Below the pieces are notes generated by a model. The model saw only the letters and a program-made list of their open reading frames with translations. It was not told where the DNA came from and made no database searches. Positions 3,026 to 63,051 of a stretch of DNA of 64,000 bases are shown here, piece by piece (positions within the stretch are counted from its first letter, which is position 1; each line of letters opens with the position of its first letter). Both the position numbers and the translations under genes were made by a program. The DNA is taken from NCBI RefSeq assembly GCF_037042905.1, contig NC_087250.1, positions 26,972,001-27,036,000 of the forward strand, written 5' to 3'. Source of the stretch: Lytechinus pictus (Eukaryota).

Positions 3026-4131
3026 AACCCCTCAAAAAAAGTTTGGAAATCTGAGTTTGGCCATTAATTTCTCCCAACTCCAAAATTTTCACATTGCATA
3101 TTTGACATCATTTAAAAGGTAATTCAATTCTCTTTACAATGATACCATGCTTGTTATGATCATGCCATCACAAAAAGAGCAGGATTCAAAAGTGTTGGAT
3201 GAAGTCTGAATTGAAAAGCTGCAAAACGAGCAAAAAAGTTTGGACATCTGAGTTTGGCCATTAATTTCTCCCGACACCAAATTTTACACAATGCATATTT
3301 GATATCTTTCAAAAGATAATTTGATTCTCTTTAAAATGGTCCCATGCTTGTTATGATCATGACATCAAAAAAGAGCAAAATTGAAAAGTGTTGGATGAGG
3401 TCTGAAGTAAAAAGCTGCAAAACGAGCAGAAATAATCATGAAGGGTCAATACAGAACATGATTCTTTTGTCTGCGTCAATAAAGATGAAAATCCATTCAA
3501 ATCACACCCCTGCTTTTTCATTTCATAATGTTTTGTTGTGGTTTATGTTTGTTTGTTGTGTTTTTGTCTGTGCAGAGGTGTGTTTGATTCCATTTGAATG
3601 TTGATGTTAAGGCGCATGAAAACAATTGCTGAGAATCTCACTCATCATCATGGAAGAAAAGAACAGTGACTTTCAATATTGTGTCATTTTGCAAATTTTG
3701 AATTTTGACCTTGCCCCACATTTCAAGGCACTGCACCTCCATGTGAGCAAAAATCATATCATGAAAAGTATCATTTTAAGGAAAATTAAATGATCTATTC
3801 ATTGATATTAATTCAAAATTGGTATTTACTAAAACCGAGGCGGGATTACCGATCAAACTCAAAAGAAACCGCCAAAAAAATTCACTCATCACTACGGAAA
3901 AGGGAACTGTGACTTTCAATATTGTGTCACTTTGCAACTTAATTTTGAATTTTGACCTTGCCCCACATTTCAAGGCACTGCACTTCCATGTGAACCATAA
4001 TCATATCAGGTAGGGTATCATTTTAAAGAAAATTAAATTATATATTCATTGATATTAATAACAATTAATATTTACTAAACCGAGGAGGGAGTTTTGATTA
4101 AAGTCGGATTTCCAAACTTTTTTTAGGAGTT
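3026..4131. mobile_element. TA-flanked TIR element (Tc1/mariner-like, non-autonomous) nested in the composite element; mirrored at ~7510-8604
   Basis: TA-AACCCCTCAAAAAAAGTTTGGAAATC ... GATTTCCAAACTTTTTTTAGGAGTT-TA, with internal direct repeats of ~200 and ~240 bp. Confidence 0.7.
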
Positions 4132-4401: not shown

Positions 4402-5515
4402 CCAAGTGGAGCGCCTCCTGCAGTCTCACCTGCATCACACTATCCAATATAGTAGCAGTGCTGACTTTGAAAACTACTATAAAATAATTATTCACAAAAA
4501 CACCATTCATACAATGATACAATACTACGTTCATTGACAATAAATGACATTTGACCTTGATCATGTGACCTAAGACTTGTCAGTGATACTTGATTACCCC
4601 TATATCGACATTTTATAAACTGTATCTAAACTTTGAAAGTTATGTCAGCAATATAGTATTAATCTCCAAAATGGCCAAAGTTCAATAACCTTAAATGACC
4701 TTTGACTCTAGTCATGTGACCTGAAACTGGTATGAGATGTTCGGTGATACTTGACTACTCTAATATCCAAGTTGATGAATCATATCCATAAGTTTTCAAA
4801 GTAATGGCAATTCAACAAATACCCCCAACATGGCCAAAGTTCATTGACCTTAAATGACCTTTGACCTTCGTCATGTGACCTGAAACTTGCACAGGATGTT
4901 CAGGAATACTTGATTACTCTTATATCCAAGATTCATGAATCAGATCTATAACTTTCCAAGTTATGATGGTAATTCAGCAGATCACCCGAACATCACTAAA
5001 GGTCATTGACCTTTGACCTTGGACATGTGACCTGATATCCGCACAGGATATTTAGTGATTCCTGATTACTCTTATGTTCAAGTTTCATGAATCAGATTCA
5101 TAAACTTTCAAAGTTATAATGTTAATTTAACAAATACCCCCAATTGGCCAAAGTCCATTGACCCTAATTGACCTTTGACCTTAGTCATGTGACTAGAAAC
5201 TCAAGCAGGATGTTTATATACTTTAATAACCTTATGTCCACGTTTCATGAACTAGGTTCATATGATGACATTTCAAAAACTTAACCGTAGGTTAAGATTT
5301 TGATGTTGATTCCCTAAACATGGTCTAAGTTCATTGACCATAAATGACCTCTGACCTTGGTCTTGTGACCTGAAACTCGAGAAGGATGTTTAGTAATGCT
5401 TGATAAACCTTATGGTCAAGTTTCATGAACTAGGTCCATATACTTTCTAAGTTATGATGCCATTTCAAAAACTTAACCTTCGGTTAAGATTTGGTGTTGA
5501 CGCCGCCGCCGCCGG
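4402..5515 (+). repeat. Interspersed repeat with internal GACCTTTGACC tandem units (Helentron/HINE-like, class inferred); mirrored at ~6115-7225
   Basis: Starts CAAGTGGAGCGCCTC..CAGTCTC, then ~8 units of ~150 bp containing TTGACCTTTGACC..CATGTGACCTGAAAC, and ends in GCC repeats. Homologous to 55444-55915. Confidence 0.65.
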
Positions 5516-5780: not shown

Positions 5781-8700
5781 AGCAAGGTTTCCACTTTGGC
5801 GAGTTGGAGTTGCGAGTCATACGCGAGCTGCGCGAGCTCTAACTCGCCTTAGCTCGCACAAGCTCGCGTGAAATTTACATTTTTCCCTGGAATTTGCTTG
5901 AGTGACAAACGACTCAACATCGAGTTCACTACGCTCGTTGTACGAGTGAACCGAGCGCGAAACGAGTCAGGCCGAGCTTAGTATGAGTTGCGGTGACCTT
6001 TATACGACTTAAAGCGAGCTATGAACGAGTTATAAAGATTTTGTTACGAGTGATAAGAGTTTCATACGACCTAGGGGTGGGAAATGCACATTTTTGGCAC
6101 TCAAAGATGGATGCCGGCGGAGGGGGCGTCAACACCAAATCTTAACCGAAGGTTAAGTTTTTGAAATGGCATCATAACTGAGAAAGTATTTGGACCTAGT
6201 TCATGAAACTTGACCATAAGGTTTATCAAGCATTACAAAATATTCTTTTCGAGTTTCAGGTCACAAGACCAAGGTCAGAGGTCATTTATGGTCAATGAAC
6301 GTAGACCATGTTTAGGGAATCAACATCAAAGTCTTAACCTACGGTTAAGTTTTTGAAATGTCATCATAACTTAGAAAATATATGAACCTAGTTCATGAAA
6401 CGTGGACATAAGGTTATTAAAGTATATAAACATCCTGCTTGAGTTTCAAGTCACATGACTAAGGTCAATTAGGGTCAATGGACTTTGGCCAATTGGGGTA
6501 TTTGTTAAATTAACATTATAACTTTGAAAGTTTATGAATCTGATTCATGAAACTTGAACATAAGAGTAATCAGGTATCACTAAACATCCTGTGCGGATAT
6601 CAGGTCACATGTCCAAGGTCAAAGGTCAATGAACTTTAGTGATGTTCGGGTGATCTGTTGAATTACCATCATAACTTTAAAAGTTTATAGATCTGATTCA
6701 TGAATCTTAGATATAAGAGTAATCAAGTATTCCTGAACATCCTGTGCGAGTTTCAGGTCACATGACGAAGGTCAAAGGTCATTTATGGTCAATAAACTTT
6801 GGCCATGTTGGGGGTATTTGTTGAATTACCATCATAACTTTGAAAGCTTATGGATATGATTCATCAACTTGGATATTAGAGTAGTCAAGTATCACCGAAC
6901 ATTTCATGTCAGTTTCAGGTCACATGACCAAAGTCAAAGGTCATTTAAGGTTATTGAACTTTGGCCATTTTGGAGATTAATACTATATTACTGTCATAAC
7001 TTTCAAAGTTTAGATACAGTTTATAAAATGTGGATATAGGGGTAATCTAGTATCACTGACAAGTCTTAGGTCAAATGATAAAGGTCAAATGTCATTTATT
7101 GTAAATGAACGTAGTATTGTATCAATGTATGAATGGTGTTTTTGTGAATAATTATTTTACAATAGTTTTCAGAGTCAGCACTACTTCTATATTGGATAGC
7201 GTGATGCAGAGGCGCTCCACTTGGACCTTAATTGTCCAGTTTGATGTCTTGTTTTTTTACCTTGGCTCTGCTCGTCATTGACCTCCTCTTCCGTTTCAAT
7301 TGTCTCTTCCTGCACTTCTTCTACCCTTGTTTGAATGTCATCTTCTTTCGCTGTTTCCCTATCTGAATGGCCACAACTCTTGGATCTTTTGGATCGAGGC
7401 ATATTTCTCTCCTTATTTGTTGAAAGTTGTAATAATGCAGTGGAAACAGCCTTTTTAAAAGTACGTGTACATTGCGTGGGTCAGTTAAAATGTCCTCTCA
7501 CTTTAAAATAACTCCTCAAAAAAAGTTTGGAAATCCGACTTTAATCAAAACTCCCTCCTCAGTTTTAGTAAATATCAATTGTTATTAATATCAATGAATA
7601 GATCATTTAAGTGTCTTTAAATGATACCCTACATGATATGATTATGGTTCACATGGAGGTGCAGTGCCTTGAAATGTAGGGCAAGGTCAAAAATCAAAAT
7701 TAAGTTGCAAAGAGACACAGTATTGAAAGTCACTGTTCCTTTGATGAGTGAGTATTTTAAGCGGTTTCTTTTGAGTTTGATCGGTAATCCCGCCTCGGTT
7801 TTAGTAAATATCAAGTTGAATTAATATCAATGAATAGATCATTTAAGTGTCTTTAAATGATACCCTACATGATATGATTATGGCTCACATGGAGGTGCAG
7901 TGCCTTGAAATGCGGGGCAAGGTCAAAATTCAAAATTTGCAAAATGACACAATATTGAAAGTCACTGTTCTTTTCTTCCATGATGATGAGTGAGATTCTC
8001 AGCAATTGTTTTCATGCACCTTAATATCAACATTCAAATGGAATCAAACACACCTCTGCACAAGCAAACACACAACAAACAAACATAAACCACAACAAAA
8101 CATTATGAAATGAAAAAGCAGGGGTTTGATTTGAATGGATTTTCATCTTTATTGACACAGACAAAAACATCATGTTCTGTATTGACCCTTCATGATTACT
8201 TATGCTCGTTTTGCAGCTTTTTACTTGAGACCTCATCCAACACTTATTAATTTTGTTCTTTTTTGATGTCATGATCATAACAAGCATGGGATCATTTAAA
8301 AGAGAATCAAATGATCTTTTGAAAGATATCAAATATGCATTGTGTAAAATTCGGAGTCGGGATAAATTAATGGCCAAACTCAGATTTCCAAACTTTTTTG
8401 CTCGTTTTGCAGCTTTTCAATTCAGACTTTATCCAACACTTTTGAATCCTGCTCTTTTCGTGATGGCATGATCATAACAAGCATGGTATCATTGTAAAGA
8501 AAATTGAATGACCTTTTAAATGATGTCAAATATGCAATGTGTAAATTTTGGAGTTGGGAGAAATTAATGGCCAAACTCAGATTTCAAACTTTTTTTGAGG
8601 GGTTTATATGTGGGGAAAATATAGATCACTGGACATTTATCATTCAGCTGGCATGCCTCTGAGCTATTGCAACGCACTCGGAATAAACTCATACGAAACT

Positions 8701-26760: not shown

Positions 26761-27348
26761 ATGAATAGCATGATGCAAAGAACAACAAGACTTGTTTCAT
26801 CTTGTAGACTTCAACTACAGGTGTTTGCAGCATGTCACAGTCACTCGCATACAGCAAGGCATAGTGTGTTTCACTTTCCTAGTCTAAAAACACATGGAGG
26901 AGAGGCTAATGTTTTGCATAATGGCAGAGTTTTTAAACAGAATCTGTCAGCATTATCACAACGTAGATCAGAGTCAGACATTTGTAAACTCCAAAGAGCT
27001 CTTTGCAGGAATTTGAAACAAAGCTCGTCATTGCTATGTCAGATGAACCAAGTTAATTGCATATGTGTCGGTCCAAGGAGATTCAAGGATAGTAGACAGA
27101 TGTTGAATAGACCGGTACATCATCATTTCTCAACAATAGCTTCATATTCTGTACTGAATGTTTGCCGCAAGAGAAGATATAACCAGTCTGCAGTCACTAG
27201 TGCCTTCACATGTTGCAGAGTTCAAAGGTATGGATCCAGTGCTGTTGGAAATGAGACCGGTGATCCCCTCTCACCTAAGAGCCCACAGTTCAGATGCTAC
27301 ATGGATCATCTGAGAAATGAGCACCAGGCTATTTCAGAGAGACTACAG
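26761..27348 (+). CDS. MTRF1L: MTRF1L coding exon 1 (long presequence-like N-terminus)
   Basis: Acceptor ..TTTCCTCAG at 26710, ATG at 26761, donor CAG|GTAGTT. Basic, acid-poor sequence ending [17 protein letters not shown]. Confidence 0.75.
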
Positions 27349-30300
27349 GTAGTTGTTCCTGTTAAGAAAAAGAATTTTAATTCTTTGCTTTGCTAAATGA
27401 CCACATTTCTACAGAATGCATGAAAAATAAATTAAAAGCCTTGCTACGATATAATACATGTACATGTACTGCATGCCATGCACTTCTGTACATCACGCAA
27501 TATCTTCACAATTAACCAGAGAAAATATGTTACACTGTACATGTACATCAGATTTTAAACAGTTTAGTTTAAATGCCATTCTCTTTCCTTCAGTAGTATA
27601 TAGAGAGCAATCTAACATCTCATTAAATAATTGAATTTTATTGCAATGAAATTTATCAAAATACACTCGCAAGCAGTTTAAAGACGGAAATATGTGACTG
27701 TTTACAAACAGATCATAACAATAATATGGAGAAAACAAAGTAAATGTTCAAATACAATACACAAATTCATACAAAAAATTATTATAAATACATATACTGA
27801 AGGAACAGGAAATGAGACCAAAAGAGAAAAAGGAAAGAGGGAGGGGGGGGGGGCTTCATTTTTTTGTAACTTGCTATGATAACAAATCTGCACTGACAGT
27901 AAAAAGCTACTGAAATCCTTTAATCTGATTGGCTGATAGTAAAGTTTGTTATTACAACAAGTTTGAATGAAACGGGACCGTGACCCGTTTCATAAAGAGT
28001 TGTAATTATTATTGCAATATCCGTAGAAACCTTGATTGTGATTGGCTGCTGAGCCATGTTTAAATTCAAATTCAAATATATATTCAACACTTATAATAAA
28101 AACACATTATAATATTATAGAAGTAGAACATAAAGGGAGATGAATATAAGATATAGAATGACAAAACACAAGGTATAAACATAATGAGAGTCTCGGGGTT
28201 AGCAGAAAGGAGGAGATTCCTTTCATAATTGCTACCCCCAACAAAATCCTAAAATTGAAAGTGGTAGATGTACATGAAAAATACTACACATAAGAAACTA
28301 CACTGAGCCACCGGTAGTGGTAGAGTGCACGCCTCATGAACGGGAGGTCGTTCAATCCCCGATCGAGTCATACCAAAGACTTACAAAAAATGTGACCTTC
28401 TGCCTTCTTGTTAGGCGCAGAATTTAGATTGGAGAAGGGTAATAATAACATTATCATGTTATGTAGGGCCCACTGGTAGAGCAGTTTCCTAACTGAAGTG
28501 GCTACCCTGGGTAAATAAAACATTATTACTATTACTTATTATAGATATAAGATACAGCAGTTATATTTTCCCTTTTATTGTTTTGTTTGTTTTAATAGGG
28601 CGGGGAGCCGTTGTCAGACTCTAAACAGAAGGAGCTCAGGGGATCCATGATGGAGCTTGGTGAGATCCTTGAGAAATGGACCGAGCTGATTTCAATGGAA
28701 GAAGAGAACAATGAAATTCAGCATCTTATCCAAGGTAAGTAGTGGTCATGATTTAAATGTGATTTTAGAAAAATATGAAAAATAAGGATAAATTTGTGAT
28801 ATCAGCTGGCATTCTGATAGCTAAAACTAACAGTGATTTTAGTCAATGCTTCTGTGGAATGCAAGTGTTCATATCCTCCTGCAGTACACGTATCCATGAC
28901 AGCTTATTTCCAATCGTCAAATTGCAAACTCGTCTACTATCGTTTGGTCTACCATCAGTTAGTCCACTCACCAAATGGTCTACTTTCATTTTAATAGTCT
29001 AATGCCATTCTGTCTAATAACCAGTTGGTCCAATAGCCATATACCATTTGGTCTAATTGGACTAAGTGTTAAATTGTGCAAAGTGAATGAAAGTAATATG
29101 GATACTAGACCAACTGGTTATGAGACGAAATGGTCATAGATGAAATGGTGATTAGGTGAAGTGATGATTGGACTATTTTTGTTTAATGGACCAAATGGTT
29201 GTTTGACGAAATGTTGATGGATGGAATGGCATTAGACTAAATGAAAGACCATGTGGTGAGTGGACGAGTTGGCAAATACCATAAAAGTAACTTTTATGCA
29301 ATGGGGCACTGCTGTTCTTTGCGACCATTTTCTCCTGACTGATTGGAAGTTTCAATAGGGCCGTCTGCACCAGCCCGAGTTTTCAAATTAGTGCGCGATT
29401 TCTGATCCGGTAAATTATCCCGATCTGAAAAATCTCGAAATTATTTGTAATGGAGACGCAATCTCGCTGGATTAATCTCGATATTGCAATCCCAAGTCAA
29501 CTTTGGATTATTTGCAAAATAGTGCGCTATTTTCCGAATTATCCCGCTAATTTGCCGGTGCAGACGCACTCGGGATTATTTATTCATGGCGTCATACCAT
29601 AATGAGTCGATGCCTCGCTCGAGCAAGAATCGCTCTTCTTGGGATAGTGGACACGGGGTTTCTTGAATCTCAAGATTAATCACGAAGAGGGCCGATTGGG
29701 CTAAAATCTTGAGATTAAGGAAACTCTGGCTTGTGCAGCACCGCCTATTGAGATTGCATTATATGCACATCTCATGCTTGAGTGAACCTTGAGTTTATTC
29801 TGTTAATCATTAGATGGTCATGATAAAGAGATGCAGGATCTAGCTCTGTCTGAGAAGGATCAACTTCAGGATAGGATTGAAGATGTATCACAAGAGGTAA
29901 GACCAAGAAAATCTCAATAGGCTCATTTTTATCTTAGCCATTGTTTTTATGATGAGCTATTTTAAAAGAAGTGATGTTTATTTCTGGCTGCTCTTAAACC
30001 ATTCATTACGTAATGAATAATTATGTAAAGTTCAAAATTGCCTTCTATTGAGTTGTAAAGCAGTTCTTTAACTGAATTGAATTACCCTCCATTTTTTTTA
30101 CTGATTGTTCAATAAAACGTGAAATAAGTAAATATTTTCCTTTGTTTCGAAGTGAAATTATTGACATGAATTTATATGGGATGAAAATAGTCCATTAGGA
30201 TAATTTTTCAGCAATTCCTATTGTGGATTATGGTCAAACATACTTTTTGCTTTGATACAATATAAATTTTCATGATATAATTCTGACCTGATTTGGCAGA

Positions 30301-33300
30301 TGCTAATTATCATTTTATGTAATTATTCTTATTGTCATACAACTCAAATGCTGTTTCAAGGGAGAGGGCCAACAGTACGCAAGGCATTGGAGTGAAGGGT
30401 TTGCACCACAGACGTGGGCCAGTTTCATAAAGAGTTACAAGTGTTGTAACTTTGCCATTATGGCAACTACTATGGTTACCTTGACTTTGATTTGCTGCTG
30501 AGCTATGTTATCATGGTAGTTGCCATTATGGTAAAGTTACAACAGTTGTAACTCTTTATGAAACAGGCCCTAGCATTTAATCTTGTCTGATCCATTAAAA
30601 GTGAAAAAAGTGCCCTAGATGCTGTAACGCAAATCTTTCAATTGAACTTGGACCGACTTTCATGCTCTATTGCATATATGTTGTGATCATTATAACAGCA
30701 ATCAAGCCAGCAAATCTATTGTATACTCTGCGCTATGCCATTTGCTCTGATGAGAATGGCTCTGCTCTAAATTCCACATACTAATCGATTGACCATCTTC
30801 AACCCTAAGTTTAACACTATACCCTAACCCTAACATACATGTATAACCCCATTGCAACCATAACCCTACATCTGAGATAAAATTAATCCCGGAGCAATTG
30901 TCGCAGGAGCAAATGTCGTGTCACTGCATAATCAAGCCATAAATAAGATCATGAGCATTTGACCAGCGATCAAGCTAGCAAATCTGGGCTCCGTTGCATA
31001 AAAGTTTGTAGTGTTGTTGAAATAACATAAGAGCCAATGTAGACAACATATATAATGAGATTCAGTCTTGACTCTCTGAGTCCAGTTTAATGTCTGATTC
31101 AATGTTGTACATTTAGGTGTGGCTTCACTCAAGCACGATAGTGCAATTCAATAGCTCAAATTAAACATGTAAGATTACAATGTATGCAGTAAATAACCAG
31201 GTGGTGACCTGAATATCTTAACTGTTCATGCACAACATTACTTTGAATAAATTATAGTTGCATCAATAATTGTATACACAACATTGTTACCATCCAATGG
31301 TAAATTGCAGGTAATCCTTGATTTTGATTGGCTGTTGGTCGTTGTTACCATGGTAGTTACCATTGGATGACAAAGATATCATAATACTTTTTATGCAACG
31401 GGGCCCCAGTGTATGATCAAACTATAAGGTTTGTGTGACAGTCCATTCCATCTCATTTCTTTTGTCTTTCCTCTATAGTTGGTTGACCTTCTAATGTCAT
31501 CCGAAGAGACTGATGATAATGATGTCATAATGGAGTTTTCAGCAGGTGTGGGAGGTCAAGAAGCTATGCTGTTTGCCTCTGATATGTTTGACATGTATCA
31601 ACGATATGCATATTACAGACGTTGGTCCTTTACAATCCTCGAGTACTTTACCTCAGATATAGGTTAGTAAAAGTTGTATTGTTTGGAACTGGAAAAATGT
31701 TGATGAAACGCTCCCCTGTGATAAAGGAGTCTTTGTTATGTATGAGTAGCATGATCATCATGGTATGTTATTTTGTTGACTCTGAGACGATAGCTCTTTT
31801 CTGTCCTTGATATTTTCCTCGGGTATCATATTGCAAAGCGTGTTCAAATCTTTCAAAACCAATTGACTGATTGCAAACTAAATCGCTAAATGGACTGACT
31901 AATCAAGACCAATGTTACATGCGCATTTTGTTCAACATACTAACCAGGAACCAATCAGAAGTGTTCTTTTATATTTACAGGTACTTCTTTTTCTTTTGAT
32001 CCCCTTTCCTTTCTCCATTTATCTCTTGATCCTGGCAATATGCAAGAATGTACGAATGTAGTCTTGGAAGTTTTAATTATACCTAAGATCAATGGTATAC
32101 AGTATACAGGATATGTTTAAACATTGTACCGTAAAGAGTAATTTACAATGAAATGTATACTTGTTTTTGTAGTTGTGTAATTCCCATTCATTTCAGTTTG
32201 TTAACTAATGTGGAGAATTTAAATTAATACCATTTATCGACATGTATCTATCTATTCATCTATCAATGCCTGATCTTTTCAAATCAGTTTATCTGGATAA
32301 AACAGTTTCTATTACCGAAGAGACCACCCTGTCTAAAAAAATAGATAAATCAGTTACTTCAATTTTTTTCCTAGGTGGATTAAGGCATGCTACCGTTAGT
32401 ATCACTGGTGATCAAGCTTATCGTCTTCTAAGACAGGAGGCCGGCGTCCATCGTGTTCAGAGGGTACCAAAGACAGAGAGACAAGGGCGTATACATACAA
32501 GCACCATGTCAATAGCGGTACTTCCACAACCTAAAGAGGTATAAACCAAGGGCGTATACATACTATTTCCATGTCTGTAGCGGTACTACCACGACATAAA
32601 GAGGTACAAAAACAAGGGCGTATATAAACAAGTACCATGTCAATAGCGGTACTACCACAACCCAAATAGGTATAAACCAAAGGCGTATACATACATGTAC
32701 TAGTACCATGTCAGTAGCGGTACTACCACAACCCAAAGAGGTATAAACCAAAGGCGTAAACATACAAGTACCATGTCAATAGCGGTACTACCACAACCTA
32801 AAGAGATATAAACCAAAGGCGTATACATACTAGTACCATGTCAATAGCGGTACTACCACAACCTAAAGAGATATAAACCAAGGGCGTATACATACTAGTA
32901 CCATGTCTATAGCGGTACTACCACAACCCAAATAGGTATAAACCAAAGGCGTAAACATACAAGTACCATGTCAATAGCGGTACTACCACAACCCAAAGAG
33001 ATATAAACCAAGGGCGTATACATACTATTACCATGTCAATAGCGGTACTACCACAACCCAAATAGGTATAAACCAAAGGCGTGTACATACTATTACCATG
33101 TCAATAGCGGTACTACCACAACCCAAAGAGGTATAAACCAAAGGCGTATACATACAAGCACCATGTCTATAGCGGTACTACCACAACCCAAAGAGGTAAA
33201 AAACCAAGGGTGTATTTATACTAGTATTATATCTATAGCATTACTGCCAAAATCTAAGGAGATGCAACCTAACAAGCACCATGTCTATAGTGGTACTACC

Positions 33301-34350
33301 ACAGCCTAAACAGGTGCAACTTTCCACAAACAAAAAATATTTGAGAATGTTGGTAAAATAGCTTCAAAATGTTTTGAAAACTTTTTAGAACACTCTGAAA
33401 TCATTTTGTGTTTGCTTAATACCCACCTCACTATTGTTTGTCTTATTGGTTAAAAGATTTAGTTATATTGCATTTGAAGCTGTAGCACTCTCTAGTAAAA
33501 CAAATCTTCATGAAATTCTAGGAAGTATTGTGGCATCACTGTCATAGCATTAGTTTGCCTCTCCCCTTGTTAGCTACAGTATATATCTGTGCAGCTTAGA
33601 ATAGTTATTGGCTAATTCTATGAAGTATAAAATACCAGCCATGACTTGAAAATAAAACTAAAACTCTAATACCTTGGTCACATTTGCTCTACGGCAGCCA
33701 TACGGCAAGTAAAGAATAGCCTTTTTAACATTTGTTTTTTACCAGCTACATAGGTGGTGTGAATAAAAATGAATAAAACGGCTGTTTTCGACTCGCCGTA
33801 CGGCTGCCGTAGAGCAAATCTGACTGAGGTACTAGTATTAGTTTCATATTCCTGTTGCATGGCCTGAATATACATAAAATGGATGTTTGGATTACTATAA
33901 ATAATAAACTGTTCTAATTTCTGTTTTGGGCGTAAAATTTTGTATTCCTTTCATTCTGAATTTTTACTCTTTTTACTTAGATTGATCTGAAACTGGACCC
34001 TAAAGATCTGAGGATTGAAACAAAGAAAGCTAGCGGAGCAGGAGGTCAGCATGTGAATACAACGGACAGTGCTGTTAGAATCACTCATGTACCAACAGGT
34101 ATTATATATCTACAGAGATGCCAACCTAAAGGGATGGTTGTCAGGAATATTTACCATATTTGTCAGGAACAAATGGGAGTTTCTCAGGAACATCCCGCGA
34201 AGTAGCATCGTTTATACAGGGATGCCACTAGGTGTCCTCCAAAAATACTGAAACTCATCGCGGGCCGGGACAGTGTCCAAGAAAAAAAAAATTAGGGGGG
34301 TCCACCTTTAATTTTGGGATGGACACATGTAACAGGTAAAAAATTGGACA

Positions 34351-34392
<42 letters not shown>

Positions 34393-37300
34393 GGAGGGGG
34401 GGGGTCTGCCCCCACCTCAAATTTAGGGGAGGGGGGGGGGGGGAGGACCAAGTGGCTTCTTACCTTGTTGTGATCGATGACTTTGAAGTCAATTAGGTTT
34501 GAAAAACTGACGGTAGTTAGTTGTGTGTTTCTCATAGAACGCTAGACCAAAAGCTTCAGTCTCTGTATTTTGGTTGTTCAGCTGAACCGCGTTGGCTCCA
34601 CTCACCAATACATAGACTGAAGAGTTGTTGGCCCGTACATTAAGACAACGTATCAGCTAGCTGATACGTACGTAACCCAAGGAGCTCCGGCCCGCTTTTC
34701 GGGCCGGAGCTCCCTGAGTTCCGTATCAGCATGCAGCAGTAACGTTAGATCTAACATTCGGCGGAAACCCGATTTTCGGATCGTTTTTGGTACATCAAAT
34801 GTCACATTATGAAAAAATAATTACATCCAAACTTACGAGAAAATATATAAAATTCAGAAACATCGTACCTTAGACCGCAGTTACCGCTAATTCCTTTCAA
34901 ATGATGATCAAAACTTAGTCATCCTCGAATCCTTCGTTGGTCATCGTAAGTTGCCATCTTGGATGACGTCATCATCTTTACAGTCGTATTTACCAGTCGC
35001 TATTATACCGCGATTCGTGCCGCTGATTTGTGCTTGTCTATGTGCGTGCGTTCGGAACTTGTCGCTCGCATTGATTGGCCAGGATATCGATAATTCTAAT
35101 CAGAAAGCCTTGATAAAAGCATAACTCAATGAACGTAGTAGGCAGTGCGCGCGTTTATAAATTATAGTAGAGAAACTCCCGTTGGTTTACCGTTGGCCAC
35201 ACACACGCTGTATGCACGATACATGTATACACAATACACGCATATATTCATGCACAATACACAATACACGGATATATACACATGCACAGCAAAGCAATAC
35301 ACAATACACATGTATTGTAATTGTTTTTTCCGTAACCTTTTTATTGTTGCCGTAACACCGTAATTGGAGGAATAAAATCGGAACAAATACGGCGAATCCG
35401 GAACGCTTGGCATCTCTGTATCTACTACAGACAGGTATTATACATGTATATACATGTGGGGGTTTTCTGCCCTAAGACTACGGTGCGTCCCAAAAAAAAC
35501 TATACACTTTTGAAATAGCTGCCAAATAAAAAGTATATAACTTTGGGGGAAATACTTATATATATGGAAAGCCAATAAAGTCATCTTTCAAATGACATCA
35601 AAATGTTGGAAAACTATTCATGCTTGAGTGAGCACTAGCCACTTAAACAAAGGGTATGAAAATTAGGGTGGGCAGGAATTAGCCTCTCGGTTTCTTTCAG
35701 TTTTTGAGAGGCGAGTCCCTTGGAACTTGCAAACTTGAGGGTGTTGGGATGAATTAATGGTCATTCATTATCAATTTAAATTGTTAGAGAAAATTTCATG
35801 AATTATCAAATTGAAATTCCATGCATGAGTGAGCGTGAATTGCAAATCTTTAGTGCAGCATTTTAACTTTACAATGTGGGTCTCAGCAGTGTGTTTATTG
35901 GAGTCCGGAGAATGGGGGTAAGAAACGACTTCAATGGGTGAAGTAAGCTGATGCGAAAAGGGTCAACAGAACGTTTAGCCTCCCTCCTACAGGTCCGTCC
36001 CACCCCTCCTGTTGAGATGGAAGCTGATTGCTATTACATGTACGCATTAAGTGCAGAGTGGACTGTAAATTTGATAATAAATTCTGAAAATTAGGTCATC
36101 AACTTTTACCTATCAATCATTTAATCAACAATCTGTTAGTAAATCAACTCAGTCAATGTGATCAATCAAATATTCATCTTTTTCAATTAATTATCATTCA
36201 AACATTCAGCTTTTTCAATAAATCTTTTCATAAATCATCATCATTAGTCAAGTTCTTAATAATCATTCAATGGAAAAGAAAGACCCATCAACCATAAGTC
36301 ACTTGGCATTTAAGTTTTAAATACCATCCAGGAGAAAGAAAGGGGGTGGAGGGCGGGCGTGAGTAAGAGAACACAAAGAAGAATGCCCCTTTAACCCAGT
36401 CTTACCCTCTCTCATCCCCTTGCATGTAACAGGTACCATCACATTACTCTGACTCTCACAAGCACACTTGCTAAGATCCACATAATAAACTAAAAATGCT
36501 ACACTAAAATTACAATTCCTGTTTACTCATGCATTACATTTCAATTTAGTAACTCATTAAATTTGCTTAAGAAACCAAAACTGATCTCAATTCATCAGTA
36601 ATTTAGCATAACACCCTTAACTTTGCAAGTTCCAAAGGACTCACCTCTAAAAAAACTGGAAGGCTAATTCCTGCTTACCCTAGCAAATGCTAGCCTCTTA
36701 GGAGGGGTGAAAGGGGTAGAGAGGGGGGGGGGGGGTTAAGTGTTCTGTTGACCCATATCCCGTCAACCTACTTCCCCCACCTAAGACCCATCCCTATTCT
36801 GACTTCCATGAACACATTGCTGAGATCCACTTGAAAAAGTGAAAAATTGTATTTCATGTTCACTCATGCATTAAATTTCAATTTAATAATTCTTGAAATT
36901 TGCTCTAAAAAGTAAAAACCTAAATTAATAATTCTTGATCATTGATTCATCAAAACACCCTCAACATGAACGGTTACCCTATCCAAAAAACATGTTCATA
37001 TCACACCCATTCTGAAATCTCTACATTGGTTAATGGTCAACGATCGCATCATCTTCAAAATCCTTCTTCTTGCATTCCATGCAATTAACGGCTCTGCTCC
37101 ACAGTACAATTTCAATCTAATCAGCAAATACACTCCTGTCAGGTCCCTACGTTCATCTAACTCTGGTTCCCTAGTTATTCCCAAATCCGTTAAGACATGG
37201 GGGTTCGGGCTTTTGCTCACGCTGGCCCTGTTCTCTGGAATGATCTTCCCCTGGTAATCCGAGAATGCACTTCTATTGACACATTTAAACGTTACCTTAA

Positions 37301-38351
37301 GACTCGTCTATTCAATGATTCTTACTCTTAATTGTTCCTGAATCTATTACTATTATATTTGTACTTTTTCTCTTTCTTTCTTTCACTGCGCCTTGTGCAC
37401 TCTGCCGAGTGGATTCGGCGCATTACAAATCACATATATTATTATTATTATAAAAGAAAGGTCTGATGAAACACATGACCACCATCCCATGTTATCAATA
37501 TTTTTTTAACGATACAGTCCTTTATATCAAACATTAGAAGTTATCTTTATGAATCTTGAATATTTGGTGCATTATACATTATTTTGTCTCGGGTTTGTCA
37601 GGTTTGCTTTTTTTTTGTTCAATGCTATGTTAATTATTGTTTTGCATCTTATGTCTTGTTTTAATTTTCAATCTTACTTCTTTTTAAGTTATTTTTTTTT
37701 TAGGATCAAATGGAAGGACAGGTATATTTTGTAAATATCACTGAAATGGGCTACCCTTCATTGAAAAAATTGTTTTGATTTTCACTTATTTTATTTGTGA
37801 TTTTAATATGGAAAGTAAAAAAACCAAACAAACAATCAAAAACTAGGTGAGAGAAGTAGATGTGAACAATTGAGCATATAAGCAATCAAATTCAAGTTGC
37901 AGCATCTTCAACAAGTCTTTGACAAAAGATATATATTTTACTTCTTTCTTATGCCTATTTAGTTCAATTTTGTTTTGATCTTGAATAAGGTATCTCGGCT
38001 GAAAGTCAACAAGAGCGTTCCCAACACAAGAATCGTTCGATTGCCATGACGATGCTACAGACTCGAATCTACAACCGGATCCTTGAAGACCAGACCAATT
38101 CTGAAAGATCGATGCGTCGTTCACAGGTGGGCACAAGAGGGCGCTCTGAAAAGATTCGTACTTATAATTACCAGCAAGATAGGATCACGGACCATCGGAT
38201 CAGTCGTAGTATCCATGGAGTAATGGAGTATCTACTAGGATCTGAACACTTAGATGAAATGATGGTTAGTTGTATGGAAGGCGAGGAGTGTCAGAATATA
38301 CAAGAAAGAATCCTAGAAGTTTATGATATGAGCAAAGAGAACTCAAGATAG
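26761..38351 (+). CDS. MTRF1L: Mitochondrial peptide chain release factor 1-like (mtRF1a), 7 coding exons, ~544 aa
   Basis: Exons 26761-27348, 28599-28734, 29814-29896, 31479-31662, 32375-32538, 33981-34098 and 37990-38351 all have GT-AG boundaries and consistent phases (1635 nt). RF1 motifs: [32 protein letters not shown] (PxT), [46 protein letters not shown]. The start Met is uncertain. Confidence 0.92.
28305..28540 (+). mobile_element. tRNA-derived SINE
   Basis: A-box-like GGTAGTGGTAGAG and B-box-like GTTCAATCCCC, a GAGTCATACCAAAGAC core, and an AATAAAAC(ATT)n tail. Confidence 0.65.
28599..28734 (+). CDS. MTRF1L: MTRF1L coding exon 2
   Basis: [23 protein letters not shown]...IQHLIQ|GTAAGT, phase 0 to 1. 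Confidence 0.85.
29357..29747. mobile_element. Harbinger-like MITE
   Basis: Degenerate TIRs AGGGCCGTCTGCACCAGCCCGAGTTT / AAACTCTGGCTTGTGCAGCACCGCCT. Confidence 0.55.
29814..29896 (+). CDS. MTRF1L: MTRF1L coding exon 3
   Basis: [37 protein letters not shown], phase 1 to 0. Matches the RF1 D.EM..LA..E helix. Confidence 0.85.
30416..30570. mobile_element. Palindromic MITE (GGGCC.GTTTCATAAAG family); related partial copies near 27880-28040, 31270-31410 and 42666-42810
   Basis: GGGCCAGTTTCATAAAGAGTTACAA...TTGTAACTCTTTATGAAACAGGCCC fold-back. Confidence 0.75.
31479..31662 (+). CDS. MTRF1L: MTRF1L coding exon 4
   Basis: [42 protein letters not shown]..|GTTAGT. Confidence 0.92.
32375..32538 (+). 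CDS. MTRF1L: MTRF1L coding exon 5 (PxT motif)
   Basis: [57 protein letters not shown]. Confidence 0.92.
32482..33320 (+). repeat. 65-bp minisatellite derived from the 3' end of MTRF1L exon 5 plus its splice donor (~12 copies plus a partial copy)
   Basis: Units start at 32482, 32547, 32613, 32678, 32749, 32814, 32879, 32944, 33009, 33074, 33139 and 33205; a partial copy starts at ~33273. Confidence 0.95.
33981..34098 (+). CDS. MTRF1L: MTRF1L coding exon 6 (catalytic GGQ)
   Basis: [50 protein letters not shown]. Confidence 0.93.
36965..37450 (+). mobile_element. 3' fragment of an L2/CR1-group LINE
   Basis: [36 protein letters not shown] matches the L2-group ORF2 C-terminus. Stem-loop tail GCGCC..GGCGC followed by (ATT)n. 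Confidence 0.85.
37990..38351 (+). CDS. MTRF1L: MTRF1L terminal coding exon
   Basis: [50 protein letters not shown]. Confidence 0.9.
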
Positions 38352-43436: not shown

Positions 43437-44587
43437 TTAATGAATAATATATCTAGTTTAAACCTACCTTCTAGTCCGTTTCTTTCTTTCTTTCTCTCTC
43501 TCTCTCTTTATTTATTTCTTTTGTTCTTTCTTTCCTTCCTTCTCCTCCTCCCTCTTCTTCTTCTTTTTCTTCTCCTCCTCCTTCTCCTTCTGTATTCCAT
43601 TTCCTTACTCCCCCTTTAATTTCTTTATTTCTTTCCCTACCTGAAAATCATAAATATTGAAAAATTACAAGAATAAAATTATATGCAGTTAAATGATAAA
43701 CCTCTTAGACTAACAGAGAGGAGGAGACTTGCAAAACATGTCTCAAGAAGTATATGTTCTTAAAAATGCAATATCCTGGTAACCTAATGGAAGAAGGAAA
43801 AGCTCGAGGCTGTCCCAAGCATCCCTGGCAACGGACTTTCTTCAAAGACTTAGAGTTGACCCATATCTTTATACCAATCTGTTGGAGGTTAAAGCAGTCA
43901 CAGATAATGATAGCTTGTTGCCTATAAATGCACTACACTGGAGGGACTAAGTGGTAAGTAAAAAAAAACAGGAGTAATTCTGCACCTGATATCCCCTCCC
44001 TACCTCCTATTGGCGCCTAATGTGGTCCAAAGTATCACTATTCATATTTAGTAGTTTATTTGATATTCTGATACGAATGCTATTTGCTCACCAGCATTAT
44101 ATCATAAAAACAAATATTAACATTTCTCTGATCAGATAAGGAGAGCTATAAGTGTTGTTAAAATTGTCATATACAGTCATATTCTGTTTCTGGCAAATTG
44201 GGATCTGAATCTGATTCTGCATTTTTTCATTTGAAGTCTAGGTGTACACATTCAGATTTTAAATAATTGTGAACAGGTAATGTAACTTCTAAATTTTCAA
44301 ATGATACATCTTAAAATAGTAATTTGTAATTATAATGGGATGGGAGATGATTATGTTATGCTGAAACACAAGGTACATTAGCTAAAGTAGTTTTTTTTTC
44401 ATTATCAAGTTTATCTTTTGCATTAATGTTGACATGTATGAGAAGGTGCATGGGTAAGGTACATAACTTATTTCTTGCCATTGAAGTTTATTTTAATTTC
44501 ATTTCTTCTGAAGCTTTTTATCCATCTCACATCTCTTGCATTTTTTCCTCTATCATCCAGAATTTAACGATCTTCAGACATTACATT

Positions 44588-46246
44588 ATGGCGTCAAGAT
44601 TTCCAGAAGGAAACCAAGTTCAACTCCGACCAAGAAAAGGTCATGACATGAAATGGTCATGTGACAAGCATGGTGAGCCAATCAAATTTTACTGTAAGAA
44701 ACACAAAATTCCTATATGTCATCCATGCGCTACCAAAGATCACAATCAGAAACCATGTGAGCTAGACGACATCGAGGATGTCATCTTCGAAAGGAGGAGA
44801 CAGCTGGATGAAAAACGGCCAAAGATACAGGAACTTCAGAAACAAATGGAAGCCCTCAACACGAAAATAAAGAGTACATCAACGTCTGGAAGTACTCATC
44901 TTCGGACAATTAACAACAACATTCAAGCATCATATCACGACAAGATCAAATCTGTTGGAGAAAAGGAGAACAGGATGATTAGGGTTATTAACGAGGAGGC
45001 AGATGAGGAAATAAGACTAGTAAATGAGAAGAGAGAAAAACGGATCAAAGATTGCAACACCGAGAGAGAAAATGAGCGACAAATCATCAAAGACAAAGAA
45101 GCAAAACTTCTATCAGATGCAAAGAAAATCAGCGAAGTCGTTTCTAAGAAGATCAAAGATCTTAATAATAAGAATCAGCTTGTAATAAACACTATGAAGA
45201 ACATTGAATCAACCATCACACGTATAAACCAACATGATGAAACATTGGTGAATGAAGCTCCTCAAGTACTTGCATCTATTGATGAAAATTTAAGTTTGAA
45301 TGTTCATCAAGATGATAGCGACTGTCTTGACCGAATACAGAATGAAGTTGAGAGAGTGAAATTTGTAGAGGGGGAAGTAGGTGGAGAATACTATGGTAGA
45401 ATTGATGGGTATATTGGTAAATGGGAACTTGTCAAGACAATCCACATTCCATCGGTTGTTAATAACCCGTGGGTGCTTGGTTTAGTCAGTGATGATGAGA
45501 TATGTGTGCAATACGTAGATAACAATGGCATGTATATTACAAACATCAACACTCAACACACAGAGAAAGTCATTGATGGAGGTGTGTTGATTACATCATG
45601 TGCGCCCATAGACAGTAACGTAATAGTATGTGGTAAGGAGAGAAGGGGTGTTACGTCGGGTGACAGGTTGGATGGATGCATCACTCTCTATGACAGACAA
45701 TGGAAGGTGATTAGAGACATCAGCATACCAAGGAATGGATACGGTAGTAGTGTGGATGTTGATGTTGACAGGGATGGGATGATCATCGCTGCTCAGAGGA
45801 ATCAGTCTAATATCTACGTCATCAATCCTGCTAATGATAAGATAGTAAAGACTATTACGATGCAGGGTAAGAGGGTGGTGGGTGGGATACAAGACTTGTC
45901 ATCAGGTGATATCGTTGTGAAGACAGGTGATAATGAATACACTGTCATCTCACGATCAGGAGAAGAGAAGGCTGTCATACACTGTGATGAGTGGAACTGG
46001 TGGTCAGAGTGTCTCGTTGACAAACTGACAGACACACTCTACATCGTGTACTGGGTTACAGCGCGTAATACCATCGCAGTTGATCAGGTGTCACGTGATG
46101 GTATCATCCAGGCAAGGAGGATCGTGGAATACGTGAAATCAGATCGCTCTGACTGGGTCAGCCCTTGTCTTGTTACTCCTTCTGGTAACCTTGTAGGATG
46201 TGATGGGGACAAACTTCATCTTTACAAGAAGACATTCATTTTGTAA
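44588..46246 (+). CDS. RING-less TRIM-like protein: B-box, coiled coil and NHL-like beta-propeller (~552 aa), single coding exon
   Basis: Long open frame. B-box2 CDKHGEPIKFYCKKHKIPICHPCATKDH, a K/E-rich coiled coil, and repeated beta strands (VDVDVDRDGMIIAA, CLVTPSGNLV). Acceptor CATCCAG at 44560 precedes ATGG at 44588; a possible upstream non-coding exon ends ACAG|GTAATG at ~44277. Confidence 0.85.
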   Translation: MASRFPEGNQVQLRPRKGHDMKWSCDKHGEPIKFYCKKHKIPICHPCATKDHNQKPCELDDIEDVIFERRRQLDEKRPKIQELQKQMEALNTKIKSTSTSGSTHLRTINNNIQASYHDKIKSVGEKENRMIRVINEEADEEIRLVNEKREKRIKDCNTERENERQIIKDKEAKLLSDAKKISEVVSKKIKDLNNKNQLVINTMKNIESTITRINQHDETLVNEAPQVLASIDENLSLNVHQDDSDCLDRIQNEVERVKFVEGEVGGEYYGRIDGYIGKWELVKTIHIPSVVNNPWVLGLVSDDEICVQYVDNNGMYITNINTQHTEKVIDGGVLITSCAPIDSNVIVCGKERRGVTSGDRLDGCITLYDRQWKVIRDISIPRNGYGSSVDVDVDRDGMIIAAQRNQSNIYVINPANDKIVKTITMQGKRVVGGIQDLSSGDIVVKTGDNEYTVISRSGEEKAVIHCDEWNWWSECLVDKLTDTLYIVYWVTARNTIAVDQVSRDGIIQARRIVEYVKSDRSDWVSPCLVTPSGNLVGCDGDKLHLYKKTFIL

Positions 46247-56230: not shown

Positions 56231-56413
56231 ACGGGCTATTCTATTTCTCATATTTGGGGAAAGTGGGCCTGACATAATGTTATTTTAAGCACATCATGTA
56301 AGCGCAAATATGACAGCAATATTTCATTAAACATACACTGTGAGCGCAAAGCGTGGGCTTGAATATTTTTAGCACTAACCCAATAGAACATGTAGAAAGT
56401 AGTGGGAATGAAC

Positions 56414-57222
<809 letters not shown>

Positions 57223-62183: not shown

Positions 62184-62526
62184 CAGTTCCAAAGAGGCGA
62201 CATGAAAGAGAAATGTTAAAGAATTTATGGATGTTTAATGTCCAGTGTTCAAGTAAATATGCACAGATTATTTTCGAGATTCGAGTTGTCATTATTTGTT
62301 AATTTTTCACAATATTAATAAAAAAAAATTCTCGAAATTAATTGAGATTGTAAATTCAAATGAATATACAGTTGATATTGATGTAATATAATTGGATGAT
62401 TAGATGTAATTAAACTGTTGAAGAAGACGAAAATGTTTTATCATATATCTTATAATAGGTAATCATTCATTCGGATCTGTATATAGAACTGTATAAATGT
62501 GACGTATTTTTTGTATTTTAGACACC

Positions 62527-63051
62527 ATGGATCTTACTGGAGTGCGCAGGAAACCGAACGGTGATGACCCTTCAACGAACACCGCCCTCTCTCGACATGA
62601 ATTCTACGACATTTATCTCTGGGCATCGTCTAAAGATACAGACTATTTTCGTAAAATGAAAGATTGTATTCATTCCAATAGATGGAAAATGACATCTTGT
62701 TTTGATCATAAGTTGGGTGAACTAGTGACGCAAAGCATCGAAAATGCTCTCTTGAAATGCTCCCACATGGTATGTTTGATCACGAAAGATGACTGTAAAA
62801 CAGACAACCTTCAACAGCTTATGACAATAGAGATGGCGATTCAGTCGCTTCCAAGAACGACAGGAAAAGGATTAGAAGGCCGGGTTATTCCTATCCGTTG
62901 TGACGTTCCAGAATCTTCTCTTACTCCTAAACTGAAGGCTTTGACAGGAGCGAGTATTGATGATCGCGACCTTGAAGAAAGACTAAGGAAAAGTATTAAT
63001 ACGAACATCCGGATGGAGAGAGAAGAAAAGGAGAATGTCACAGGTGATTGA
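62527..63051 (+). CDS. TIR-domain protein (N-terminal TIR; either a 174-aa stand-alone TIR or spliced at 63043 to exons beyond the window)
   Basis: Acceptor TTTTAG at 62521 and Kozak-like ACACCATGG. TIR pattern: YDIYLWASSKD (box 1), DHKLGELVTQSIENALLKCSHMVCLIT (BB loop/aB/bC), RVIPIRCDV...PKL (bD). Possible donor CAG|GTGATT at 63043/63044. Confidence 0.75.
   Translation: MDLTGVRRKPNGDDPSTNTALSRHEFYDIYLWASSKDTDYFRKMKDCIHSNRWKMTSCFDHKLGELVTQSIENALLKCSHMVCLITKDDCKTDNLQQLMTIEMAIQSLPRTTGKGLEGRVIPIRCDVPESSLTPKLKALTGASIDDRDLEERLRKSINTNIRMEREEKENVTGD

Follow-up and report, generated by a model that had tools for sequence, protein, structure and literature searches.

A minisatellite spanning the exon 5 donor of a Lytechinus pictus mitochondrial release-factor gene, probably a tolerated array of silent pseudo-donors

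The window analysed here is a stretch of 64,000 nucleotides from the sea urchin Lytechinus pictus, which carries on its forward strand a seven-exon gene for a mitochondrial release factor (Table 1). The exon 5 peptide is identical (100%) to the L. pictus 'peptide chain release factor 1-like, mitochondrial' (P0002), and translation of the seven exons gives no differences from this record over 544 amino acids. The host protein has PCRF and RF-1 domains above the Pfam cut-off (189.5 and 129.1 bits) together with the motifs PxT (residue 362) and GGQ (residue 406, in exon 6), the hallmarks of an mtRF1a (MTRF1L) release factor; in mtRF1a, excerpts of PMC3472500 assign stop recognition to the PxT motif and the hydrolase function to GGQ. 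Exon 5 ends in phase 0 at residue 385; the initial annotation had placed this end next to PxT. Among 139 homolog records, 121 match the next-exon pattern at this point and three more continue into the next exon with small changes, five are without the motif, and ten read PQPTE followed by an unrelated tail beginning with V, as would result if translation continued past a GT at this position. The intron is thus older than the array that now occupies its start.

Near-identical mtRF1a records in RefSeq (P0002, P0122 and P0124-P0132) appear, from their accession groups, to come from about five loci of L. pictus that share one 28.5-Mb contig, whereas L. variegatus has one record in the same protein cluster. 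The multiple L. pictus records are either a local gene expansion or unmerged haplotypes. However, two of the sequencing runs described below (X1 and X2) carry the window's letter alone at 31611, although several of the near-identical RefSeq records differ there, and gene redundancy is for this reason not used here as an argument against function.

The junction between exon 5 and intron 5 is repeated in tandem. Tandem Repeats Finder reports a single array at 32482-33226 (period 65, 11.3 copies, 87% matches, score 1096), which two degenerate units past this call extend to 33321, giving 13 sites homologous to the donor (after 32538, 32603, 32669, 32740, 32805, 32870, 32935, 33000, 33065, 33130, 33195, 33261 and 33313). 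Splitting the array at these donor-like sites defines 13 units of about 65 bp, each corresponding to the final 57 nt of exon 5 and the initial eight bases of the intron, as the initial annotation had described for this release-factor gene. The array it had placed at 32482..33320 is likewise confirmed, but its count of about 12 copies becomes the exon's own unit plus 12 intronic copies. GT is retained at 9 of the 13 sites, or 8 of the 12 intronic ones, and is replaced by AT in the other four (32805, 32870, 33000 and 33261); a further change, TAG instead of GAG ahead of GT, is found in three intronic copies (32669, 32935 and 33065). Both kinds of change had been pointed out before, but the TAG variant alters position -3 alone and leaves the donor usable by score (65.6 against 66.8 for the authentic site). 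The 11 bases of the true donor are repeated exactly in two of the 12 intronic copies. The 65-bp unit has no copy elsewhere within the 64-kb window (other matches have E values of 1.4 or worse), and a blastn comparison of the 12 splice junctions of the gene found such copies at the exon 5 donor only. A search of 31000-36000 against Rfam gave no matches, and the predicted fold of 32480-32620 has an energy of -27.7 kcal/mol, a raw value, uncorrected by shuffling, that is given no weight here.

Table 1. Coordinates of the mtRF1a gene and of the boundary array, in positions of the window
Feature	Position	Strand	Details
mtRF1a coding span, seven exons	26761..38351	+	26761-27348, 28599-28734, 29814-29896, 31479-31662, 32375-32538, 33981-34098, 37990-38351
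Exon 5 of mtRF1a (MTRF1L-like)	32375..32538	+	164 nt, ends in phase 0, holds PxT (residue 362)
Unit 1, authentic donor after 32538	32482..32546	+	57 nt of exon end and 8 intron bases
In-frame TAA	32542..32544	+	two codons into the intron; within any distal-donor product
Unit 2, diverged edge copy	32547..32611	+	83% to unit 1; GT kept after 32603
Units 3-11, homogeneous core	32612..33203	+	89-92% to unit 1; GT in 6/9, AT in 3/9
Units 12-13, degenerate far edge	33204..33321	+	71% to unit 1, and a shortened unit of 52 nt; AT after 33261, GT after 33313
Exon 6	33981..34098	+	catalytic GGQ (residue 406)

The acceptor that closes intron 5 is the one previously named, although the position given, 33981, already belongs to exon 6 as its first base. 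Since the intron opens with a valine codon followed by TAA, use of any distal donor would yield a product of 386 residues without GGQ, which agrees with the consequence foreseen in the initial annotation. The intact distal donors lie 59-769 nt past this TAA, and a further junction lies downstream. The exon-junction rule would mark such transcripts for nonsense-mediated decay (NMD), and by this rule distal-donor transcripts would be expected to be destroyed.

Several other features were observed along the gene and the window. An inverted repeat with 77-nt arms, 77% complementary and MITE-like, lies in the 3' half of intron 5 (33666-33835), and 31881-31976 in intron 4 is a high-copy interspersed repeat with depths in the thousands in all four runs examined. 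A second copy of the exon 6 donor, which itself follows 34098, is found after 35434, the corresponding regions being 34090-34112 and 35419-35446. Between both donors, and 14 bases into intron 6, lies a 1306-bp insertion (34113-35418) with 12-bp terminal inverted repeats and a 6-bp target duplication, which looks like a non-autonomous DNA transposon and is presumably hAT-like. Once the insertion and one target duplication are discounted the two exon 6 donors are 24 nt apart, and the L. pictus record P0127 has an in-frame insert of eight residues (GIIYLLQT), as the distal exon 6 donor would give, which is missing from P0128. A record of this gene family can therefore be annotated with use of a duplicated donor if the frame is kept. 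Outside the gene, an open frame of 631 codons (44351-46246, forward strand) encodes a B-box zinc finger (26.2 bits in Pfam, where the cut-off is 24.1) followed, by eye, by coiled-coil-like and then propeller-like parts, and is thus TRIM/NHL-like; another forward open frame (62503-63051) has a weak TIR_2 match of 21.6 bits, under the cut-off of 28. Two near-identical 3' ends, non-LTR retrotransposon-like by eye, occur at 285-1119 on the reverse strand and 56396-57055 on the forward strand, each beside an ATT-type microsatellite, and a Pfam search of the 56396-57055 copy gave no match. Between about 3035 and 8595, repeats occur as mirror-image pairs (197-bp units at 3035-3432 and 8203-8595, and units of 152-162 bp at 4670-5251 and 6362-7012), an arrangement that suggests a large foldback or inverted-repeat element.

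Further evidence on the array comes from 24 listed sequencing runs, all of them available as contigs (no raw reads) and none recorded as RNA, of which four (X1, X2, X11 and X17) were compared in detail over 31400-32630, a range that takes in units 1 and 2. In X1, which is of the same species, the share of sampled array words is 0.56 against 0.14 expected from exon 5 alone, and the joint between tandem units is present; in X3-X8 the share is 0.15, near that expectation. Tandem units were also found in both X11 and X17, DNA-type runs of a second species label. Record 15 of X11 spans 32482-32606 with 13 differences and record 23 of X17 (224 nt) goes back 122 bases, while in X11 the unit is covered at a depth of 504-612 and exons 4 and 5 at 69-74. 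The exon 4 changes of the second species, at 31611 and 31626, agree with the L. variegatus protein P0123, and these changes and the tandem units in its runs suggest that the array probably arose before the split of the two species sampled. An assembly artefact, or an array private to the sequenced animal, might be suspected because the several near-identical L. pictus records on one contig may make the region hard to assemble. However, the differences among units are structured, and the word share and tandem joint of X1 and the second-species units all speak against this reading, which is highly improbable. The assembly artefact that the initial annotation had named as a refutation is thus contradicted by the contigs, and the array is real, its exact unit count being that of one assembly.

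The differences among units also bear on how the array evolved. Core units are one to eight bases apart from one another, whereas the edge units 2, 12 and 13 have 9-21 differences from other units. The three core copies with AT are mutual nearest relatives (1-3 differences) and the three TAG copies are two to four bases apart, suggesting that each change probably arose once and then spread by duplication. A minor letter is carried by four or more copies in 7 of the 65 columns, and the +1 change from GT to AT is therefore not special. The donor 9-mer, which makes up 9 of 48 positions, holds 4 of the 13 distinct variants and is not significantly enriched for them (p=0.22). The distribution of changes over the three codon positions (11/6/13) shows no significant silent-site bias (p=0.27), and there is no sign of selection for or against GT in the copies.

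Evidence on donor choice comes mainly from X1 and X2, both of the same species as the window and derived from two studies. In both, exon 4 is joined to exon 5 (31662 to 32375, with GT..AG ends) at depths of 47.9 and 23.5, a joint that is absent from the DNA-type runs X11 and X17. The exon 5 contigs of both cease to match the window exactly at 32538 and are followed there by 146 and 417 letters of different sequence, a continuation that, going by the RefSeq models, should be exon 6. Record 24 of X2 (943 nt, depth 23.5) contains exons 4 and 5 with no differences and its match ends at 32538, the same base at which the match of X1 record 8 (313 nt, depth 48.2) ends. X2 has no contig past this base, where its depth is 2.79 (the 5/42 share due to the last five bases of record 24) and then 0 and 0. 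Similarly, PQPKE is followed directly by IDLKL in all 12 protein-cluster records (11 from L. pictus and one from L. variegatus), none of which is truncated after the valine. No contig of X1 or X2 supports donor 32603, a comparison from which rare or NMD-depleted forms would drop out; the range compared ends at 32630, so that joints of donors 3-13 to exon 6 lie outside it. At contig resolution, the transcripts seen use the first donor, 32538.

X1 differs from X2 in that it contains material from the array. Its baseline is given by an unspliced intron 4 contig at depth 2.8 and by the tandem-unit joint at 2.9, against which the contigs derived from the array add up to about 51 at 32523, with another 8-14 on unit 2, where about 34 would be expected from 12 units at 2.8. 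Overlap among contigs, a larger number of units or a slight leak might each account for this excess of up to about two-fold, contig depth being a poor measure of abundance. No X1 contig has the window's unit 2 letters at 32568 and 32577, and the X1 allele may differ at these positions.

The strength of the sites gives little reason for the choice of the first. By a rough score from a mammalian frequency table, the authentic donor has 66.8 against 70.0-91.4 for the other three correctly placed donors of the gene (scores for exons 1 and 2 being left out), so that the weak donor of the initial annotation is better called modest, and the competition with decoys that had been attached to it is unsupported. 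Intact array copies score 65.6-77.7, the copy at 33195 (77.7) standing above the authentic donor. Strength is therefore not what makes the first donor win, an outcome consistent with choice by position.

Tandem duplications of exon-intron boundaries have been described in amphioxus as 'mirages', in Adh3, the globins BflGb6 and BflGb9, troponin C and PGBD5 (PMC3087553; PMC3902484; excerpts of these and of the papers cited below are the source of what is said of them). According to these accounts, mirages mostly keep their splice signals, have a homogenised core and diverged edges, and leave splicing undisturbed. The urchin array is alike in its unit lying across the junction, in the signal kept by many but not all copies, in its homogenised core and diverged edges, in the normal splicing of the transcripts seen and in belonging to an invertebrate deuterostome. 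It differs in its host, a sea urchin rather than a lancelet, and in having been found under a second species label. Moreover, allelic and somatic length change is reported for the amphioxus mirages, whereas the urchin array is known here from the length in one assembly and from short contigs. Four of the five mirage features are found in the urchin: a head-to-tail unit spanning the boundary, partial retention of the signal, mRNA made from the authentic site, and a homogenised core with the edges excluded.

Human boundary minisatellites provide a second comparison. In the 37-bp VNTR of F7 intron 7 the first monomer spans the boundary and the most upstream donor alone is used, without competition from the copies downstream, whose consensus values reach 91, and the true donor alone is likewise used in the minisatellites of LMNB2 and PDGF intron 4 (PMC1557585). 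In these precedents the most upstream donor beats identical or stronger copies downstream. However, in IFI6 (6-16) and CBS intron 13 two proximal pseudo-sites are used too, as excerpted from the same paper, a use not seen in the urchin contigs. The urchin array resembles the human cases in a first monomer across the exon-intron boundary, a donor repeated down the intron and use of the most upstream site. It differs from F7 in that 57 of 65 nt of its unit are exonic as against 4 of 37, in that its copies are non-identical, two of the 12 repeating the true donor's 11 bases, and in that every distal donor includes a stop, whereas two of the F7 pseudo-sites carry none. Genes in human segmental duplications also carry variable internal tandem repeats at their exon-intron boundaries (PMC2812944), a likeness being that the urchin gene too is apparently duplicated locally; unlike there, no new intron or alternative form was seen in the urchin, and its intron predates the array. 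Boundary repeats can change splicing in humans (PMC2812944, PMC10078293). Splicing-associated tandem repeats (spl-TRs, PMC10078293) are defined by an association between length and splicing, and the urchin repeat is like them in position, since it adjoins a splice site and could vary in length. A literature search of titles and abstract openings, with few subscription papers, returned nothing on this array, on sea urchin mirages or on NMD in urchins.

These observations are most probably explained by a tolerated minisatellite of the mirage type, spanning the boundary and bearing silent pseudo-donors. A 65-bp piece across the old exon-intron junction would have been duplicated in tandem. Unequal crossing-over or slippage would then have expanded the array and homogenised it in part, all before the species split. 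The spliceosome would pick the first donor, so that all 12 copies would be removed with the intron and the protein left unchanged, and the copies would then drift as intron sequence. Upstream-first selection, demonstrated for human F7, may by analogy be the reason why the first donor wins in the urchin. The neutral duplication product that the initial annotation offered as its alternative is thus the account that fits best, whereas the copy-number-dependent splicing control that it also proposed is unsupported: the spliced contigs of two studies end at 32538, one of the two runs has no contig past it, and the first donor is used in all 12 cluster records.

Other readings give the copies a role. 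Because the core units are so close to the exon's unit, gene conversion between the copies and the coding exon end could make the array a mutation source or reservoir for the 19 codons beside the stop-recognition loop. At 32502 all examined second-species contigs, including an X11 exon contig that covers the site (record 14), carry the window's array-consensus letter, and the window exon shares its own letter at this site with units 11 and 13. However, the same pattern would follow if the array had expanded recently from the exon, or if the exon of one lineage had undergone a plain silent change, and the exon 5 peptide is identical in all 12 Lytechinus records. Such exchange is very unlikely. 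It is harder still to see the copies as alternative cassette exons or recursive splice sites, a reading suggested by three copies that read TAG and then GT and by several that keep the exon's peptide: the array has 22 YAG sites and not one is acceptor-like, T making up 2-8 of 17 bases (2 at the three TAG-GT sites) where the gene's six true acceptors have 10-12; moreover, the 65-nt period breaks the frame, and the copies hold stops and indels. With no acceptor and pyrimidine tract per copy and no frame kept, a cluster of alternative exons or recursive sites was rejected, and its chance of being correct is negligible.

The most serious competitor is a leak, in which a small share of transcripts would use a distal GT, gain the TAA and be destroyed by NMD, the number of intact donors tuning mtRF1a output. 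Points that weigh against the neutral account are the depth excess in X1, the persistence of the array across the species split, the proximal pseudo-sites of IFI6 and CBS (PMC1557585, in excerpt), and P0127, whose apparent use of the duplicated exon 6 donor is the best hint of a leak. To these may be added, on the side of the leak, the eight intact copies, two with the true donor's 11 bases and one scoring higher, the position of the stop ahead of the intact distal donors and a further junction, and the capacity of human boundary repeats to alter splicing (PMC2812944, PMC10078293, in excerpt), which keeps this alternative alive. Since contigs drop rare forms and NMD depletes distal products, a leak of a few percent is compatible with the data. 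However, X2 has no contig beyond 32538, the X1 contigs do not have the unit 2 letters at 32568 and 32577 that each distal product of the window allele must include, no cluster member is truncated, and the copies show no sign of selection on GT either way; in the F7 minigene, as excerpted, strong downstream copies were unused (PMC1557585). A leak of this kind is therefore unlikely. In a stronger form, the array would have been kept in two Lytechinus species as a leak tuned by copy number, with a few percent of transcripts stopped and destroyed, array alleles (including the arrays of duplicated gene copies) setting the dose of release factor, and exon exchange keeping the decoys matched to the true donor; this version is a little more doubtful again.

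The urchin array is, then, a clean new example of a known oddity and not a new control switch. If a length-dependent leak were found, the array would stand as a rare instance outside humans in which a minisatellite tunes a housekeeping gene by way of unproductive splicing. If instead the tolerated minisatellite is the correct reading, it would matter little, adding one more tolerated splice-junction minisatellite and extending upstream-first donor choice to echinoderms. Its practical value would be to offer, in a laboratory sea urchin, a natural test substrate with 12 graded decoys (identical, weaker, one stronger and four dead) behind a modest donor, one shared stop marking all of them.
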